A stretch of DNA of 63,019 nt, counting the filler, from Chrysochromulina tobinii (taxonomy: Eukaryota): assembly GCA_001275005.1 (NCBI GenBank). It is 6 parts of 6 records of this genome, joined end to end, with 100 filler letters (N's around TTAATTAATTAA, not from the genome) between each part and the next. Parts side by side here need not be neighbours in the genome. Positions count along the whole stretch, not along the records: positions 33,902 to 54,467 come from JWZX01001010.1; 5 more parts are not named here. The stretch is one strand, 5' to 3'. Position 1 is the stretch's first letter. Every line of letters starts with the position of its first letter. Below the pieces are notes generated by a model. The model saw only the letters and a program-made list of their open reading frames with translations, ran no database searches and was not told the origin of the DNA. Shown one piece after another: positions 7,150-52,800 of the stretch. The position numbers and the translations under genes were made by a program.

Positions 7150-7249
7150 NNNNNNNNNNNNNNNNNNNNNNNNNNNNNNNNNNNNNNNNNNNNTTAATTA
7201 ATTAANNNNNNNNNNNNNNNNNNNNNNNNNNNNNNNNNNNNNNNNNNNN
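7150..7249. other. Artificial contig linker
   Basis: N44-TTAATTAATTAA-N44, which puts stops in all six frames. Confidence 0.98.
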
Positions 7250-14878: not shown

Positions 14879-15826
14879 TCACTCCATCGTCGGTGGCGGT
14901 GGGCCACGCAAGAAACGTGAGATCGACGCTAAGGTGGGCAGCACGAGCGGCACGCTTTTGACGTAATGCTGGTAGTTCGGGTCGGCGCCATATTTCTTGT
15001 CGGCGAGCTTGACAGCGTTGGCGATGACGTCGGTGGCTTGAGCGTAGAAGAGAGCGAGCAAGAAGAGCGGCGACAAGGCGGCGCCGGCCAAGCGTCCACC
15101 ACGCCGCAGCCAGCCAGCACCCAGTGGAGACGCGGCGAGTAGCGTAGGCGCATTGAAGAGGAAGATGCCCGTCCAGACCATGAGGTTACCCAGCCAGTTC
15201 GGGTGCTGCGAGATCTGCCACACACCGGCATCGCAAAACTTGTTGCGTGTTTGCGGATCCCGCTTGAACATCCACTTCTGCGCATCGGCCGCCGTCTCAA
15301 GGGCCAGCCCGATGACGTACGCTGCCATGCCTGTGTACGTGACCCACCCGCCGAAAGCGGGGCGCCCGGCGAGTGGCACGCCGCAGGCGATTGTGTGCGG
15401 CAGGCTGACGATGAAGCCCCAGAGGAAGGAGATCATCCAGAAGCCAAAGGCGCCCGTGGTCGTGGAGAGCGTCTCGTCTAGTCGCATGTCCCGTTTATTC
15501 TGCAGCGCGCGGTAGAAGAGGAAGCTCGACAGCTTCGTGGCCCAGATGGCAACGCCCACTGACGAGATCGACTGCCGCAAATCGCCACGGCCACCAACGG
15601 TGAGCGCAGCGACCGCGAAGACGCCCGTGCCGATGAGGTCCAGGTGGTAGTGCCAATTCGTGGCTGCGCTGATGCCAAACCCCACCGTGTTCGCGGCTCC
15701 GAAGACGAGAGCCGACTGCGCGAGTGCCGGTACTCCGCCGCCAGTGGAAGCGGCGGCCGCGGCTGATAGTATGGGGCTTGTGGAAAGCGCCCGCGACGCG
15801 ATTGCAGCGAGCGATCGCAGTGGCAT
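14879..15826 (-). CDS. DUF1295 / steroid 5-alpha reductase-like membrane protein
   Basis: DMRLD, ETAADAQKWMFK, GVWQISQHPNWLGNLMVWTG, KYG.DP.Y..Y. The N-terminus looks like an organellar transit peptide. Confidence 0.88.
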   Translation of the reverse strand: MPLRSLAAIASRALSTSPILSAAAAASTGGGVPALAQSALVFGAANTVGFGISAATNWHYHLDLIGTGVFAVAALTVGGRGDLRQSISSVGVAIWATKLSSFLFYRALQNKRDMRLDETLSTTTGAFGFWMISFLWGFIVSLPHTIACGVPLAGRPAFGGWVTYTGMAAYVIGLALETAADAQKWMFKRDPQTRNKFCDAGVWQISQHPNWLGNLMVWTGIFLFNAPTLLAASPLGAGWLRRGGRLAGAALSPLFLLALFYAQATDVIANAVKLADKKYGADPNYQHYVKSVPLVLPTLASISRFLRGPPPPTME

Positions 15827-44421: not shown

Positions 44422-44491
44422 TAGGTAGATTCTGTTCGATTTCTTCGGTTTCGGACAGCGAGGCTCAGGGCCCAGGCGCCGCGAATGCGAT

Positions 44492-44746
44492 GTGCGTTAC
44501 CGGTACCGGTAAAAAGACACCGGGTACCGGTAAAAAGACACCGGGGGGAGCCGGGACACACACGGGACACACGGGACACGCGGACACACGGGACACGCGG
44601 ACGCACAAAGGCACACGGACCACACAGACGAACCTCGCAACCATCCAAACCCACCAACAACACGCACCCCGCACGTCAGCGCGACGACCGAAGCCGCGGC
44701 CGACTCAACAGCCGCAGGCCCGGAGCCGACCGTGCGTTACCGGTAC
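44492..44746. mobile_element. ~225-bp SINE-like/non-autonomous insertion flanked by 15-bp direct repeats
   Basis: GTGCGTTACCGGTAC at 44492-44506 and 44732-44746. Internal GGGACACAC microrepeats and a 21-bp tandem duplication at 44502-44543. Confidence 0.65.
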
Positions 44747-45212
44747 AGGACGCGAAACCATCGCCACCTCTTACCCGGATTCGTCAAACGTCGGGACATG
44801 TCGGAACCGCCCAAAGCTACGCGGAAGTGAACGCAACGTGAAGGTGCCGTGCGATCACAAGGGACGGTATCCATCATGGAACCTTAAGGAACCAGACATG
44901 GGGATACAGAGTGAGCCAATTGGAGTGAGCCCAGTATGGAGTATGGGGATCTTTCCGCCGTTTTGGGGGACGAAGGGTCCCGTGGAAAGCCTGACTTAGG
45001 CAACCTGTGGGGAAACGGAATGAGAACCGCAAAGTTACGGAACGCTAGTACCGTACGAAGTACGCGCGACCGAAGTTTTCGACGGTTTCAGGCCTTTCAC
45101 GGTTACGAAACCGTCTCATGTCTCATGCAGAGTGAGAGTCGTTAGAGAGTCGGTTGTCTGTGGTGACTTAAGACTTAATTCTGAGAGCTTAGATACCGCT
45201 ACAAAATCTGCA

Positions 45213-46343
45213 TCAGTCGATGCAGGCCTCCGGGAAGAAGGGCGTGGGCAGCTTCTTGAGGATGGACTTCATCCACTCGTCGCGTGCGGGCACGTCGTAA
45301 AAGAAGAGATGGTTACCAGGCATCTCCTCGAGCTCGAAGGACGCAGTGGTGAAGCGCTTCCAGAGCTCGAGGTGGTGCTTCTTGCACCGGCAGTCCTTGC
45401 TCAGGACTCTGGCCTGCATCGGGATCGCGAAGGAAGGGCCAACGTGCGCGGGCGGCGGCGTGAAGCTATACGAGTCGAAGAGGGTGAAATCGTCGCGCAT
45501 CATGCCACTATACTGCTTCCAGTTGGGCTCCTCAAAGATGATCTCGTTGACGTTCCAGCCTCGGCATTCCTCTTGGAAGGTCGCCTCATCCATCTTCTCG
45601 TTCTTGTTCCAGGGCCGCTCCGCTTCGGGGATGTCAGGCGCGGGGAAGCCCGAGACGATCCACATGGCCGGCAACGGGATGCCCCTCTCCGCGCAGAGCT
45701 TGATCCACTCGTAGCTCATCCATGTGCCCATCGAGTGACCGACGATGACGTAGGGCACCTCTTCCTGCAGGAGCGGTGCGAGCACCGGGAAGAGCGCCTC
45801 GCAATACGGCCGCAGCGTGCGTTGGCGCGGCTCCTGCCGGCGCAGCTCACGCCCAGGTAGCTGACACGCGAGCAATTCGCCGCCATGGGCAGCGCAGTGC
45901 TTGACGAAGGCATTGTCAGTGGGCACACGCAGGCCGCGGCCGGTATAGACCGACTCGGCGCTGCCTGCATTGTGGAAGCAGACGATGCGGAACTTGGGAT
46001 TCGGTGCTGGGTGGCGTCCAGCAACTGGGAACCACGCCTTGAAGGCTTCATCGGAGGATTTCGGCATCTTCGGATGTGGCGGCGGTGCCGGCGGTAGCGA
46101 TGATGGTGCGGGCGGAGGCGGAGTGGGTGTGGCAACTGGCTCCGTTGTTCCGCCGGATTCAAAGTACGCCATCGCCTCCTCCTTGGACCACATAGTCATC
46201 TTGTCAAACACGATGTCGATGTCATCGGCCATAGCATTGGCTTGGACCTGCGAGCGCAAGAATGCAAGCGACGGTGGGTGGAAAGACGGTGCAGAGGCGG
46301 GGTCACAACGCACATCTTTCAGCTCCTCGAGCGTGAGCGGCAT
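45213..46343 (-). CDS. Type II (editing) thioesterase with a small N-terminal domain; probable in-frame intron at 46313-46248
   Basis: CFHNAGS, QLPGRELR, VGHSMG, MRDDF, MPGNHLF. The 66-nt GTGCGT..CGCAG segment looks like an intron. Confidence 0.85.
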   Translation of the reverse strand: MPLTLEELKDVRCDPASAPSFHPPSLAFLRSQVQANAMADDIDIVFDKMTMWSKEEAMAYFESGGTTEPVATPTPPPPAPSSLPPAPPPHPKMPKSSDEAFKAWFPVAGRHPAPNPKFRIVCFHNAGSAESVYTGRGLRVPTDNAFVKHCAAHGGELLACQLPGRELRRQEPRQRTLRPYCEALFPVLAPLLQEEVPYVIVGHSMGTWMSYEWIKLCAERGIPLPAMWIVSGFPAPDIPEAERPWNKNEKMDEATFQEECRGWNVNEIIFEEPNWKQYSGMMRDDFTLFDSYSFTPPPAHVGPSFAIPMQARVLSKDCRCKKHHLELWKRFTTASFELEEMPGNHLFFYDVPARDEWMKSILKKLPTPFFPEACID

Positions 46344-46491
46344 CCGCAGTAGGATCGGGCAGGTGTCAGAAGACCGCGTGAAGACGCAGTCTCGCGACGT
46401 TTCAAACTTGTGTGAGTTTCGTCCCATACGGCAACGGTTTTACAACCCGTCTGATATATTTCAGAACAAAACTGTCGGCACCCTTCTGTTC

Positions 46492-47778
46492 TTATTCATT
46501 GTCGAGCAACCATTGTACTATGGTGATGCATTGGCTGGTGAGCATCGGCACGGGACCTAGGCTGACGCGCACGGCGCCCCGAAGCTCGAGGATCTCTTCC
46601 TCAGCTTCCGTGAAGCCAAGGTGATCGCCGAGCACCGTCACCGTCGAATGCGCCGGTACGGCGGGCTGCGGGAGCGCAGTTCCGAGGAGCCGTTGGCCCG
46701 CCTCATGCATCGCGAGTAGACGAGGCGTCTCACCCCGAGGCTCCTCGCCGAGCATGCATGTGCTCACCACGGCGCCCGCACCCGCACATCCTCGTGCCTC
46801 ACCCTGAGGCTCCTCGCCGAGCATGCATGTGCTCACGACGGCGCCCGCACCCGCACATCCTCGTGCCTCACCCAGAGTCTCCTCGCCGAGCTTCGCCTCT
46901 GGCGCGTCGGCAGCGGCGTTCTCGCAAGCTGACGGCTCCTCGAGTACGGCCTTGGCGCACGTGAGCTCGACCAATAACGCCCCCAAGTCCATAGCCTCAC
47001 GCGTGCTCCAGCCGGGCAGCGGATGACCAGCCAGCGCACGCCCGACCGCCGCCGCCAGGCAGCGCTCGTCCGGGCGCAGCCCTTTGCACCGGCCGCCATC
47101 GCAGCAGACCACCCGTCGGGCATCCGCGAGGAGCAGCCACACGCGCGCCTCCTGGCGCACCCCATGCGAGTAGAAAAGGCACGCAGCCAGGCAGCGTGCG
47201 AGCAAGTCCACCCGCCCCTCTGGCAGGTTGTTCAGCTCGAACTTACCACGCTCTGCCAGGGCGCTCGGCGTCTCGTGGCACACGACAACAAACTCGCGGC
47301 GGCCCGGCGGAGGGCGCGGGCGCGTCGAGCGCTCCTGGCCAAACGCCTGCGAGGCGAGGCGCGAGGCGCGCTGGAGCGCCTCATCGGAGCGAGAGCACAG
47401 CTCAGCAGCCTCATACGAGCCGATTATAGACGCTTCGAGCCATCGGCCTCCCACGCGCGTGTGCGAGAGCCCCGCCGCCGCCGCCGCCGCCGCCGCGGCC
47501 GTCGCGGCCGTCGCGGCCGTCGCCGCCGCCGCCGCGTCAGACGCGCTCCATTGCAGGACGGCGGCTCCCGAAGATCGGCCGTCCTTGTCAGCCAGCAGCT
47601 TGATGTGGAGGGCGAGCATGGGCGCCATGGTGGGCGCCCCGGTACTCCCCTTGCGTGAGGCCGTGTGCCCCACGCTCGGCACGGCGCGCTCGAGAGCCGC
47701 GTACACGTCTGCGACGCTCGCTTCCCACGGGAGGCCGCGGAGGTGCACAAAGGTCGCCTCCGCCGCCTCCCGTACCCG
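46492..47778 (-). CDS. trmY: RRM + TrmY-like SPOUT methyltransferase (tRNA pseudouridine54 N1-methyltransferase, DUF358); no ATG before the RRM
   Basis: VHLRGLPWEASVADV (RRM); GRVDLLARC, SHGVR, LRPDER, HEAG, VLGDHLGF, VSLGP..MLTSQCITIV. In frame with DPH2. Confidence 0.8.
   Translation of the reverse strand, partial: RVREAAEATFVHLRGLPWEASVADVYAALERAVPSVGHTASRKGSTGAPTMAPMLALHIKLLADKDGRSSGAAVLQWSASDAAAAATAATAATAAAAAAAAAGLSHTRVGGRWLEASIIGSYEAAELCSRSDEALQRASRLASQAFGQERSTRPRPPPGRREFVVVCHETPSALAERGKFELNNLPEGRVDLLARCLAACLFYSHGVRQEARVWLLLADARRVVCCDGGRCKGLRPDERCLAAAVGRALAGHPLPGWSTREAMDLGALLVELTCAKAVLEEPSACENAAADAPEAKLGEETLGEARGCAGAGAVVSTCMLGEEPQGEARGCAGAGAVVSTCMLGEEPRGETPRLLAMHEAGQRLLGTALPQPAVPAHSTVTVLGDHLGFTEAEEEILELRGAVRVSLGPVPMLTSQCITIVQWLLDNE
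46729..46891 (+). repeat. 69-bp unit x2 plus a terminal 25-bp repeat; carries the introner-like core antisense to TrmY
   Basis: CTCACCCnGAGnCTCCTCGCCGAGC three times, separated by ATGCATGTGCTCAC(C/G)ACGGCGCCC... inserts. Confidence 0.85.
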
Positions 47779-47781
47779 TCA
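47727..47781 (-). promoter_or_regulatory. Candidate stop-codon readthrough signal: UGA-CGG + 5-nt spacer + 17-bp stem (1 mismatch) with 13-nt loop
   Basis: Arms at 47757-47773 and 47727-47743 are complementary at 16/17 positions. TGA at 47781-47779. Confidence 0.55.
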
Positions 47782-49653
47782 TTCGAGCTCGATTGCATCG
47801 GCGATCGGCGAGACCGCCTCCGAGATAAACTCCGAGATGCCGCTGCGCTCAGCCCTGTCACCCTTGCTGGCGTTGCCCTCACCAAGGCCTGCCTCACCAA
47901 CGCCGCCCTCACTGGCGCCCGCGCCCGCACCGGCCTCGTGCGCGCCGCCCTCGCCGGTGAACCCGCTCGCAATGCCCGAGCGGCCCTCGACAATGCGGCT
48001 GGGCGCATGCTCTCCAAGACGAGGCTCGAGCCCACGATATTCACGACGAGCCAACGCCTCGGCTCCGGTGCGCGCCATCGCGTAGTCGCCGCGCCGGGCC
48101 AGCGTGCCGCTCACGCCGCTTGCCACCAGGGTCCCATGGGTGTCTGCCGTGCCGCCAATGCTGCTGCTGCTGCTACCCACACTGCTGCTGACCTCTTCTC
48201 TTCCACCGCCAGCCGCAGACCCCGCGGCACTCATCGCCACTCCCGTGTTGGCCATCGAGCGCTTGGCTATGAGCTTGCCGCTCAGCTCTGAGAACCGCGG
48301 CGCCTCGTCCTCAGAGTCGTCGCCGTGTGCGCGCCCTCTGCCCTCCTCCTCCTCCTCCTCTGGCGCGGCGGCCGCCCGCAGCCGCGGCAGCAGCCGACCG
48401 TAATCCAGCATGTACTCGCCAGTCCATTCGGCGCCCTCGGCCAGCGCGACGTGCAGCTCATATGGCGTCACCACCGGCCGATAAAAGTCCTTGGCGTCGA
48501 GCAACGAGTGCTCCGCCGAGCCGAGGAGCACGTAGACGCCCACCTCGGCGAAGTTGGCCAACTTGGCCGCGTTGAGTTTGCCCATGATAAACACGTAGTG
48601 CTTGCGCGCCGCGCGCCGGCAGAGCGCCTTGAGCGCACGGAGCATCGGCGTGCGCTGCGAAGCGGAGAGCGTGCCTACGAGGATGCCCACCACCTCGGCC
48701 TCGCGCGCTTGCTGCACGAGGTAGTAGCGGCGCATCAGCCGACGCGCCGTTGCGAGCACTAGCCGACGCAGTGTGGGCGGCGCCGTCTCCTCGCACGCCG
48801 CCGCCTCGCGGTCGGAGGCATCCGCACGCGTGGCGGTTTGGGTGGGCGGCTCGTACAGATAGACCTCCGCATTTGGCAGCAGCAGGCACAGGTTCGAGAG
48901 CGTCTGGTCCTCGCTGCCGAGATAGACGAGCGCGGCGCACTGCCCGAGCGCCGCCTCATCGAGTGAGGCTCCAAGTCTCCGACCGAGGAGGAAGCCACGC
49001 GCGAGCGCGTCGGCGGCCGCAAAGGGGTCGGAGGTGCTCGGTACGGCCGCCGCGATGGCCGACGAGGAGGCCGACGAGGCGGTAACGACCGCAGGCTCGG
49101 CTTCGGTCGTTTCGGCTGTGCGCTCCACGTCCGAGTGGCACACGATCGCGCCCGCGCCAAGGCGAGCGGCAAGCGCCTCGGATGCATGCGCGTACGGCAG
49201 GGACGGCACGACAAGTACGCGGCGCGCAGCCTCGCCAGCGCCCAAAACCGGCGCGAATGCTGTCGAGAAATGCGCGATGTCGAGCGCGCGTCGCCCGAAG
49301 ACAAAGCGCACCGGCAGCGGCCCACGAGCCTCGAGGTCGACGGGTCCGTAGTGCACGATGAAGTCGGCGTCAAAATGCTGAGCCGCTACAAAATCGACCT
49401 GAAAGCCGTCGAAGGAGGTGTCGCCGAGCACAAAGAGCTCCACACCTGCGCCATCCAGGGCCTGCTGCAGCCCGGAGACTGCGGCCGATGCGTGCGTGAG
49501 CAACGTGTCTGGAAACTGCAGCGCTACGCGCCGATGATTGCCGCGTCGAATGTGCGCGGCAGTAGCTTCGACATCGAGGTCGAAGGTGGCTGGCTCGGCT
49601 CTGGCAATGTCGCGAGAGATTGCGCGTGCCTCGTCGCTGGAGAAGACCGACAT
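47779..49653 (-). CDS. DPH2: Diphthamide biosynthesis protein 2
   Basis: VALQFPD.LL, FVLGDTSF, VD.VAAQH, IVHYG, RRYYLVQQAR, GILVGTL, GKLNAAKLANF, FYRPVVTPYE, EGRSGIA. Confidence 0.92.
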   Translation of the reverse strand: MSVFSSDEARAISRDIARAEPATFDLDVEATAAHIRRGNHRRVALQFPDTLLTHASAAVSGLQQALDGAGVELFVLGDTSFDGFQVDFVAAQHFDADFIVHYGPVDLEARGPLPVRFVFGRRALDIAHFSTAFAPVLGAGEAARRVLVVPSLPYAHASEALAARLGAGAIVCHSDVERTAETTEAEPAVVTASSASSSAIAAAVPSTSDPFAAADALARGFLLGRRLGASLDEAALGQCAALVYLGSEDQTLSNLCLLLPNAEVYLYEPPTQTATRADASDREAAACEETAPPTLRRLVLATARRLMRRYYLVQQAREAEVVGILVGTLSASQRTPMLRALKALCRRAARKHYVFIMGKLNAAKLANFAEVGVYVLLGSAEHSLLDAKDFYRPVVTPYELHVALAEGAEWTGEYMLDYGRLLPRLRAAAAPEEEEEEGRGRAHGDDSEDEAPRFSELSGKLIAKRSMANTGVAMSAAGSAAGGGREEVSSSVGSSSSSIGGTADTHGTLVASGVSGTLARRGDYAMARTGAEALARREYRGLEPRLGEHAPSRIVEGRSGIASGFTGEGGAHEAGAGAGASEGGVGEAGLGEGNASKGDRAERSGISEFISEAVSPIADAIELE

Positions 49654-49806
49654 TTCCTTCGCTGTGGTGCGGCGACGTCACACGAGACCGCGTGAAATCA
49701 CGTGAAACACACGCGCCCATTCTGATCGAGAGTTCTTTATCTCTTTGACGAAATGACGAAATTCGGTGAACCCGCGGTCGCGCTCTTCTCGCCCGCTTGG
49801 GGGAGG

Positions 49807-52800
49807 ATGACCGTATGGGCCTTGATGGTCGCCGTGGCGGGCGCCGCTCCGACCCGCCTGCGTGCCGACGGTAGCGATTGGCTCTCCTTTCCTCGTTTCG
49901 CCCTCCCGCACATGGCGCGGCCGCTCTTCACCTGGGCACCTGGCTCGCAGACTGCATTCGCCCTCGAGCTCTCGGATGCAGCAGGCCACCTCGTCTGGGC
50001 ATCTGGCAAGCAACTTAGCACGGAGCCATCGGTGCGTTATCCGCCCTCGGCACCGGCTCTCCAATCTGGCACGTACCATTGGCGCGTCGCAACGTACTCC
50101 GACCCATCGTCAGAGCCCTCCCCCTTTGCTTCTGCCGCCCTCCATGTGGCCATCCCGCCCGCCGATTGGTCGATGGCTGCTTGGCTTGGCGGCGATGCTG
50201 TCAACGTGTACACCGCATCCTTCCAAACCGGGCCCAAGTCGGCGCTCGCCAGCGTGGTGCTGTACGTGTGCGGCCTCGGCTACTCCTCCGTCCGCTTCAA
50301 CGGCCAGGACCTGAATGTGCTCACGACGGCGCCTTGGACGAACAACGCCATCGTGAACGGGTTCTCCTCGCTCGATCTGACGCCGTGGTTGGCAGACGGG
50401 GGCGATGCGAACCACGTCATCGTCTCGCTCGGCTACGGCTGGCGCGACACGAATGTCTTCGCAGTGCGGGACGACGACTCGAAGGATCGCCCTGCCTTGC
50501 ATGCAAACGCTCATCACGGCGCCACGGTTCCCCACAGGTGCGGGACGACGACTCGAAGGATCGCGTGGGTGCTGTCGCGCGCATGCTGCGAGCCAAGGTC
50601 CTTGCGACGTTCAACAACGGCTCGACGAGCGTGCTCACGTACACCGGCGACGGGACTTGGCAGGCGGCCGCGGGCCCTAGCACGGCCGACTCGGTCTACA
50701 ATGGCGAGAGCTACGACGCTCGCATAGCGGCGGAGCTCTTTGACAGCGACGGCCGTGCCGCTGCGCGCTCGTCGTCGCGCTGGGTGCCGGCACCTCGCGT
50801 CGACGGCCCGGCTGGCCGGATGGTCCCTTGGTCGGTGCCGCCCGTCGAGGTGCTCGAGACGGCGCCCCACACCTGCGGACCTCTGACGATTGCCTCGGAT
50901 TGCATGCTGATGGCCTCCCTCGTTGCATGCAGGTGCTCGCGACGGTGCCCCCGGTGGCGATGACGACCCCCAAACCCGGCCTTTACTTGTTCGATTTCGG
51001 AGTGCGAGCCTCCGGCGTGACGCGCCTCAAGCTGGTCGCCTGCCCCTCTGGCGCGACTCTTCGGATCCGGCACGCGGAGATCATGCAGCACGCGGGGCTG
51101 CCCGACCTGCAGACGGTGGACCCGACGATGATCTACACTGGCAACCTGCGCTCTGCCGAGGCGACGGACGTGTACACGTGCGCCGGTGGCAGTGCGACAT
51201 GGGCTCCTGCGCTCACTTACCACGGCTTCCGGTTCGCCGAAGTCAACGTGAGTGGCGCCGCTGGAGTCATCCTGACGATGGACAGTGTGGAGATGGTGCA
51301 CTTTGCCTCGGCCGTACCGCAGCGCACGCAGGTCAACTTCACCTCGGCCACGCTCAACAAGCTCCAGGCGATGGCTGTCGGCGCCCAGCGCTCCAACTTG
51401 ATGACGATCCCGACCGACTGCGACCAACGCGACGAGAGGCTCGGATGGTTGGGTGACGCGAACCTGAGCGGCGAGTCGATGGCGCTCAACTTTGACATGT
51501 CGGCGTTCTTCAGCTGGTTTCTGCTGTGCGTGCTCTCGCGGCCGAGATCAGACCCGTGATTAGACCGAGATCGCAACCGAGATCAGACCCGTGATTAGAC
51601 CGAGATCGCAACCGAGATGAGGCCCGTGATGGCCTCGGATGGCCCCTGATGGCCACTGCTGGCCTCGGATGACCTCCCTCATCCACTGATTGCCTCGGAT
51701 GACCTCCCTCATCCACTGATTGCCTCGGATGACCTCCCTCATCCACTGATTGCCTCGGATGACCTCCCTCATCCACTGATTGCCTCGGATGACCTCCCTC
51801 CACAGGTACGGTATCGCGACCGAGGTCGGGCACGGCGTCAACGGCAGCCTGCCCGATGTCGTGCCCTTTCTGCGTTACGGCGGCCGGCCGGCCGATGTGT
51901 CGTGGAGCGCCGCCATGATCACGCTGCTGCACGTCGGATGGAAGCAGTACGGCGACCTTCGCACGTATCGCTCGATGGGCGACGAGGTCGCTGCCCAGTT
52001 AGCGAACGTGGCAGTGCAGGCCGCCGCCGGCCTTGGCAAGATGCACACGCCGTACGGGGATTGGTGCCCCCCGCCGGAGAAGATGGGAGGCGGCCAAGGG
52101 CCCAAGCCTAGCGAGCCTCTTACCTCGGCCTTTTCGTATGTGACGATGGTGAAGCACGCCTCCGAGCTGGCCGACGCGTCCGGCGACGCTGCGGCCGCGA
52201 AGACGCTCGACGACCTCGCGGCGAAGCTCACCGATGAGTACAATGCGGCCTTCTATCACAAGGAGAGCGGCTCGTACGACACGGGCACGCAGACGGCGCT
52301 CGCGCTCGGCCTCGCCATGGGGGCCGCACCGGACACGAAGGTGACTCAGAAGGCACTCCGGACCCTGCCTCGCATGCAAACGCTCATCACGGCGCCCTCG
52401 TTCCCCACAGGCGACTCAGAAATTACTCCTCGACAAGCTCGACGCCAAGGGCACGCACTTTGACACGGGCATCATCGGGCTGAGCCAGCTCTTCCCGGTG
52501 CTCGGTGCGGCCGGGGCGCACGATACGGCGCTTGCGGTGCTCGCGCAGACCGACTACCCTAGCCTCGGGTTTGAGTTTGCGAATGAGCTGGAGAAGACCA
52601 CGACCAACCTGTGGGAATTGCCCGACGCGCCGGCAGAGGGCACCGGCATGAACTCGCGTAACCATCACATGTACTCGTCGTACTCGTCCTACCTGGTGCA
52701 GAGCGTCGCGGGGGTGCGCTCACCACGGCGCCCGAAAGCGAGGCATCTCCCTGCATGCAAGCGCTCACCACGGCGCCCGAAAGCGAGGCATCTCCCTGCA

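Follow-up and report, generated by a model that had tools for sequence, protein, structure and literature searches.

Candidate UGA readthrough joining DPH2 to a qRRM-TrmY-like methyltransferase frame in the haptophyte alga Chrysochromulina tobinii

Introduction

Stop codon readthrough of type II is defined by the sequence UGACGG, and in the alphavirus Venezuelan equine encephalitis virus (VEEV) and in Colorado tick fever virus (CTFV) a 3' stem-loop is required as well, according to the available portions of the source (PMC13517186). The longer pattern xxA-stop-CGx-xxx-xxG is described, in the accessible part of another study, as fully conserved in 35 readthrough sites of Virgaviridae (Firth et al., 2011; PMC3159437). 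This article describes a candidate site of the same type in a cellular gene of Chrysochromulina tobinii, where the UGA that ends DPH2 is followed in frame by a qRRM-TrmY-like methyltransferase. The site lies on the minus strand, as do both frames, in a stretch of 63,019 nt joined from six records of assembly GCA_001275005.1 (hereafter the window); positions count along the whole of it.

The UGA-CGG and the full motif found in VEEV, in the Colorado tick fever coltivirus and in the Virgaviridae replicases are shared by this locus. An earlier note on the same DNA had invoked UGA-CGG with a 3' stem-loop as an alphavirus readthrough signal, which the available texts on VEEV bear out (PMC13517186; PMC3159437). 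The viral elements share a 3' stem of at least 12 bp, and the present stem still folds with an 8-nt spacer. In the sources as available the viral structures span about 100-140 nt, whereas the present hairpin is compact and its stem can begin 4-5 nt past the stop. Unlike the viral cases, the present gene is cellular and nuclear, is known from its sequence, and would join two otherwise independent enzymes.

Two further systems are close. The redefinition element of SEPN1 (SELENON), as far as it is described in the accessible text (PMC3159437), likewise has a stem of 16 bp, broken by a single mismatch and placed a few bases past the UGA; unlike SEPN1, the present UGA does not stand at a Cys/Sec position, and an Rfam scan of 46000-50000, with models that may miss algal elements, matched no family of the selenocysteine insertion sequence (SECIS). 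Bicistronic green-algal mRNAs, which depend on leaky scanning, are likewise encoded in the nuclear genome of an alga and carry two open reading frames (ORFs) that nearly touch, and their ORF 2 is limited by upstream initiation sites, according to the part of the source available (PMC11291117). Unlike these, the present ORF 1 measures 1.9 kb and holds 20 ATGs before the AUG of ORF 2, and ORF 2 has no AUG ahead of its conserved start.

The downstream enzyme shares sequence and fold with archaeal TrmY (PF04013; MJ1640, PDB 3AIA/3AI9; 2QMM), a protein entered under archaea in the accessible part of a review table. Unlike archaeal TrmY, the present protein is eukaryotic, carries an N-terminal qRRM, scores below the equivalog cut-off and is known from sequence and model. 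The literature searched held nothing on the present locus or on readthrough in Chrysochromulina, with supplements of haptophyte genome papers and subscription papers as places that could bear on novelty; judged by titles and abstract openings, the literature on haptophytes and readthrough contains nothing about such a gene. No characterisation of the eukaryotic qRRM-TrmY-like family was found in the literature searched.

An In-Frame UGA at the End of DPH2

The DPH2 coding sequence (47782..49653) is a single unbroken frame of 624 aa that matches PF01866 and passes the equivalog cut-off of TIGR00272 (238.8 versus 184.05 bits). Its conserved core extends to about residue 568 and gives way to a low-complexity tail, which ends at the candidate readthrough site, a UGA at 47779..47781 in the context GAA-UGA-CGG-GUA-CGG. 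As the earlier note had reported, 428 open codons follow in the same frame, up to the TAA at 46492..46494, and RNA contigs extend beyond this final stop to about 46454. The junction peptide reads ...ADAIELE*RVREAAEATFVHLRGLPW. Placement in the same frame has by itself a 1-in-3 chance; at the 18 other ORF ends compared, at most 85 in-frame codons stay open and folds reach -20.4 kcal/mol or weaker. TGA also terminates fourteen other ORFs, whose in-frame tails are short, so that a global reassignment of UGA is rejected, as had been argued before. The arrangement DPH2-UGA-qRRM-TrmY-like is real and unusual.

The stop codon itself is genuine. A metagenome scan returned 14 loci, six of them close (L001-L006) and eight distant; over 3501 nt the window is matched exactly by L001 and L002, and the remaining four, L003-L006, represent other strains. 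TGA-CGG-GTA-CGG and the following 150 nt are unchanged in all six close loci, and a sequencing error at the TGA is rejected on this ground. Every close locus keeps the downstream frame open, and any indels there have lengths divisible by three. Among the five RNA runs examined (X14-X18 of six listed, X19 being left out), four have unspliced contigs that bridge the stop with neither a joint nor a changed letter (X15, 47645-47876; X16, 47684-48135; X17, 47677-47887; X18, 47559-47850), and X14 was uninformative, having no cover at the junction. Neither the TGG or CGA that an error would have hidden nor an intron that removes the stop, both raised in the earlier note as ways in which its proposal could fail, thus appears in these contigs. 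Its statement that no YAG acceptor lies between the stop and the qRRM motif also holds, the only two AG dinucleotides there being GAG with purine-rich sequence upstream. Among DNA runs the comparison took in the freshwater runs X20 and X21, not the 13 flagged as possible source, and gave no match at the junction at 80% likeness.

The Stop Context and a Predicted Hairpin

Past the stop a stem-loop is predicted at 47726..47774, beginning 4-5 nt after the UGA. Its arms (47773-47757 and 47743-47727) enclose a 13-nt loop and form 16 of 17 possible pairs, and both the UGA-CGG context and the hairpin described earlier are confirmed in the sequence and by folding. For the first 60 nt past the stop the folding energy is -38.4 kcal/mol, or -30.6 kcal/mol with the first 8 nt kept unpaired, and z = -2.91 relative to 200 dinucleotide shuffles. 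The same energy is equalled by 8 of 3000 synonymous recodings and is reached by 15 of 6353 coding windows and 5 of 1909 GC-matched ones, counts that include the hairpin's own windows. In seven stand-alone relatives the corresponding folds take other shapes at -16.9 to -34.0, none reaching -38.4. CGG or CUA follows 34 of the 1545 TGAs in the window; the longer pattern xxA-stop-CGx-xxx-xxG is present at 17 of the 1545 and at none of the 14 other TGA gene ends. The proteins P0003 and P0021 begin at Val2, which may reflect a synonymous change of GTA to GTG in one strain, with the stem kept by a G-U pair.

Were the site to work as its viral counterparts do, a near-cognate tRNA would compete with eRF1 at UGA-CGG and the hairpin would slow termination. 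On an mRNA that presumably covers both genes, most ribosomes would release DPH2 and a minority would insert a residue at the UGA, giving a fusion of 1053 residues. The intact qRRM-TrmY would then be reached via readthrough, at a level that would be a fixed fraction of DPH2.

The Downstream Protein and Its Missing Start

The first in-frame ATG after the stop (47626..47628, Met51, context ccc acc ATG G) lies downstream of the conserved VHLRGLPW motif, as had been noted earlier, in the disordered loop between helix 1 and strand 2 of the qRRM. Residues 10-32 after the stop (47683..47751), which make up strand 1 and helix 1, stand before every in-frame AUG. In an AlphaFold model of the downstream protein (35 sequences, mean predicted local distance difference test score, pLDDT, 78.7) strand 1 comprises residues 10-14 and helix 1 residues 22-32, both at pLDDT >90, and residues 44-50 form a disordered loop; a start at Met51 would therefore cut the qRRM. 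Gene callers pick instead an in-frame GTG (Val11, 47746..47748), which falls within the 13-nt loop region of the hairpin. Leaky scanning to 47628 is unlikely because the DPH2 mRNA holds 20 ATGs upstream of it. The 100 nt that precede 47628 have a GC content of 74%, compared with 52-56% ahead of the starts of the neighbouring genes for DPH2, thioesterase and rhamnosidase.

Conservation may speak for translation ahead of Met51. Across 18 proteins of the own species and 13 of the sister species, none of the 23 positions in residues 12-34 has changed, set beside 5/16 in the loop 35-50 and 3/100 in the TrmY core; since the linkers of the two species diverge by only about 10% (DPH2 tail, 5/52), the 0/23 of this comparison alone is modest evidence. 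Relative to the more diverged protein P0010, the segment with strand 1 and helix 1 is identical at 17 of 24 positions.

The qRRM domain (47419..47754) was assigned from structure matches and sequence, is of the hnRNP H/F and ESRP1 kind, with hnRNP H and ESRP1 as its best solved-structure matches, and contains an Ala-repeat of variable length. The methyltransferase domain that follows (46495..47301) is of the SPOUT type and is broken by a disordered insertion. It scores 90.9 bits with PF04013 (cut-off 25.5), matches 3aia in Foldseek (E 8e-14) as well as 2qmm, and has all of the TrmY motifs GRxDLL, SHGxR, PDER and GDHxG. It misses the NCBIfam TrmY equivalog cut-off (109.1 versus 183 bits), and for this reason the domain is called only TrmY-like; formation of m1-pseudouridine is assumed from family membership. 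Within the insertion lies a 69-nt tandem repeat of 2.4 copies (46729..46891, given without strand), inserted in frame and varying in length among strains. Part of this repeat matches many other RNA contigs that continue into pyrimidine-rich ...CCCCACAG, which suggests a dispersed intron-type repeat captured in frame.

Relatives and the Evolution of the Gene Pair

Proteins that combine a qRRM with TrmY form a family, one named member of which comes from Prymnesium parvum. The eukaryotic members P0127-P0166 fall into two clades, and several proteins of one clade carry N-terminal extensions that resemble targeting peptides. A scan of prokaryotic genomes yielded 10 loci, none of which matched anything beyond the TrmY part, and viral contigs yielded no locus.

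The DPH2 stop is kept in relatives, at the DNA level in the six close loci and, judged by protein ends, in the sister species and in P0108 and P0273. The sister-species DPH2 proteins end in ...IELK or ...IELE (in one cluster, 3 of the 14 members listed have a truncated or divergent end), and P0108 and P0273, 64-69% identical, end at the aligned ...LE. The C. parva gene model P0315, placed in the same 90% cluster as the near-identical DPH2 proteins, ends at the same stop. For the sister-species TrmY proteins, gene callers set the start at the GTG of VHLRG. Six DPH2/TrmY pairs have longest contigs of equal size (12280, 27176, 14656, 11695, 6545 and 5371), a match also seen for L003 and L004, where the DNA confirms that the genes are adjacent; P0273, whose DPH2 ends in VPLE, and P0010, which begins with MEAAASRVVHLRG, share 21156. 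The two genes are thus probably neighbours in the equal-size pairs, P0273/P0010 included.

Among the 151 proteins checked, only P0011 matches DPH2. It joins the C-terminal core of DPH2, a Met-free linker, the qRRM and TrmY in a single open frame, which is free of Met from DPH2 residue 92 up to the qRRM motif. A tree of TrmY sequences places P0011, with support of 98/92, as the sister of (P0010, (this species, P0009)); a quick DPH2 tree, built on rows of unequal length, was not relied on. The haptophyte-like DPH2 proteins P0116, P0294 and P0118 have tails such as VTLRIQARPGG, which may begin another domain. Such a tail may resemble DUF167.

Alternative Explanations

From the stop, the strong predicted hairpin and the lack of an AUG before the conserved start of the qRRM it follows that ribosomes likely read through at times. 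Candidate type II readthrough in a cellular nuclear gene is the best reading, if an unproven one, and the claim, having survived every refutation test that was run, is partly supported; that occasional, low-level readthrough yields DPH2 together with a DPH2-qRRM-TrmY fusion is judged about evenly poised between true and false.

A number of observations weigh against it. The hairpin and motif statistics are post hoc, because the earlier note had already picked the site; the hairpin could stem from a one-off inverted-repeat mutation, and its spacing of 4-5 nt is shorter than the 7-9 nt of viral spacers in the accessible sources. The unchanged sequence past the stop stands beside flanking spacers (49654-49806 and 46344-46491) in which L003 and L004 carry some 27 distinct changes, but the more distant spacer 44422-45212 has just one event in L004, so that this contrast is suggestive only. 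As to the single unspliced transcript foreseen in the earlier note, unspliced RNA crosses the stop in four of five runs, but no contig of the five runs covers both genes, and separate transcripts that overlap can be assembled into one contig; for this reason a single mRNA is only inferred. Of the four bridging contigs, three stop at 47645-47684 without reaching the first AUG, at a depth of 3-6. The open fusion P0011 is one sequence on one contig of 4297 nt that begins in the middle of DPH2, its Pro/Ser-rich linker could hide an intron, and a weak search of 7987 candidate proteins of 750-2140 aa found no fusion. All seven of the distant motif-bearing loci (L007-L013) have an in-frame ATG 5-23 codons upstream; DPH2 was not found in the eight distant loci, only four of which have more than 1.5 kb upstream. 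In P0010, the closest of the diverged relatives, the called protein has a Met of its own directly ahead of the motif; this residue may stand for ATG or for GTG, since the callers in question render GTG as M too.

Of the other explanations, the main one, translation from the AUG at 47628, on an overlapping TrmY transcript of its own or after a ribosome restart, is unlikely, if by no means negligible. It would give a product of 378 aa without strand 1 and helix 1 of the qRRM, and would make the 150 nt upstream a remnant that fell silent recently. The AUG stands in the ideal context accATGg and is constant in all own- and sister-species proteins compared, whereas the nearby Met54 varies; leaders seem to be short in the local genes, the ends of three bridging contigs fall just before this AUG, and the low divergence of the sister species blunts the evidence from conservation. 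This explanation would nevertheless remove the central strand from a domain whose remainder stays conserved (28/29 in the sister species), and it leaves the hairpin and the stop context unexplained. Met51 is missing at the equivalent place in P0010 and P0012-P0014, no AT-richer promoter-like stretch lies upstream, and X17 and X18 show no start or loose end at the junction. Loose ends at 47620 in X14 and X16 were set aside as an apparent chance match to another gene. An intact, separate qRRM-TrmY made from a bicistronic mRNA, by a non-AUG start at the GUG of Val11 or by reinitiation past the DPH2 stop, is distinctly improbable. It would account for a conserved strand 1 and helix 1 with no need of a fusion, the relatives are mostly stand-alone proteins, and bicistronic mRNAs are described in green algae in the available text (PMC11291117); yet the GUG has U at -3 and sits in the loop region of the -38 kcal/mol hairpin, and the 20 upstream ATGs disfavour scanning. 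Reinitiation past a long ORF is moreover usually poor.

The remaining explanations are much less probable. A nonsense change that split an ancestral fusion, leaving the downstream frame untranslated beyond basal leakage, is very doubtful: it would accord with the open fusion P0011 in a sister lineage, but the TrmY core differs at only 3/100 positions in the sister species versus about 10% in linkers, the frame stays open in all close loci with indels in multiples of three, and the diverged P0108 and P0273 end at the same aligned place. Still less probable is a minor spliced or edited mRNA that lacks the stop; contigs drop rare variants and depth was low, but none of the four bridging runs has a joint or an altered letter at the stop, and no pyrimidine-rich AG acceptor precedes the motif. 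Selenocysteine at the UGA is the most remote of all. The geometry is SEPN1-like (16-bp stem and 6-nt spacer, in the description available), and haptophytes are rich in selenoproteins; the UGA lies, however, in a non-conserved linker, at no Cys/Sec position, and the P0011 linker has no Cys. As regards a SECIS, the RNA contigs cover only some 40 nt beyond the final stop. Rfam gave one match, mir-1913, which was rejected (21 bits versus 105).

Further Observations at the Locus

An out-of-frame ATG in weak context (gaATGa) overlaps the DPH2 stop and opens a 66-codon ORF (47582..47782, minus strand); a +1 frameshift from it was considered, and inspection by eye only found no pause signal. At the other end of DPH2, RNA cover in X14 and X16 ends at 49651, inside the ATG, and resumes at about 49800-49813, a pattern that looks like RNA and not DNA. 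For the divergent rhamnosidase gene, contigs start no more than a few bases from an ATG at 49807, and these starts, with the ends at 49651, hint at very short 5' leaders. The word TTCACG recurs within 100 nt upstream of the gene starts at 15826, 36566, 46343 and 49653 and may be a promoter element. Near 7205, 22484 and 54520, runs of N are flanked by TTAATTAA, and the ORFs there end at assembly gaps, not at true stops.

Significance

The earlier note had proposed a fidelity-sensing link between eEF2 and tRNA modification, which is unsupported; the accessible passage ties diphthamide to -1 frameshifting, not to readthrough (PMC8153317). That UGA-CGG with its hairpin is the sole route to an intact qRRM-TrmY-like methyltransferase, carried on DPH2, and that the clade shows three stages of fusion, is considered possible rather than probable. 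If this is true, the three stages would be separate genes, genes coupled by readthrough, and an open fusion.

Cellular readthrough usually adds short tails or one domain to a single protein. Here, if the readthrough is real, it would link two separate translation-related enzymes and would be the route to one of them. C. tobinii would then offer a cultured alga for direct tests of readthrough and a snapshot of a gene fusion under way.

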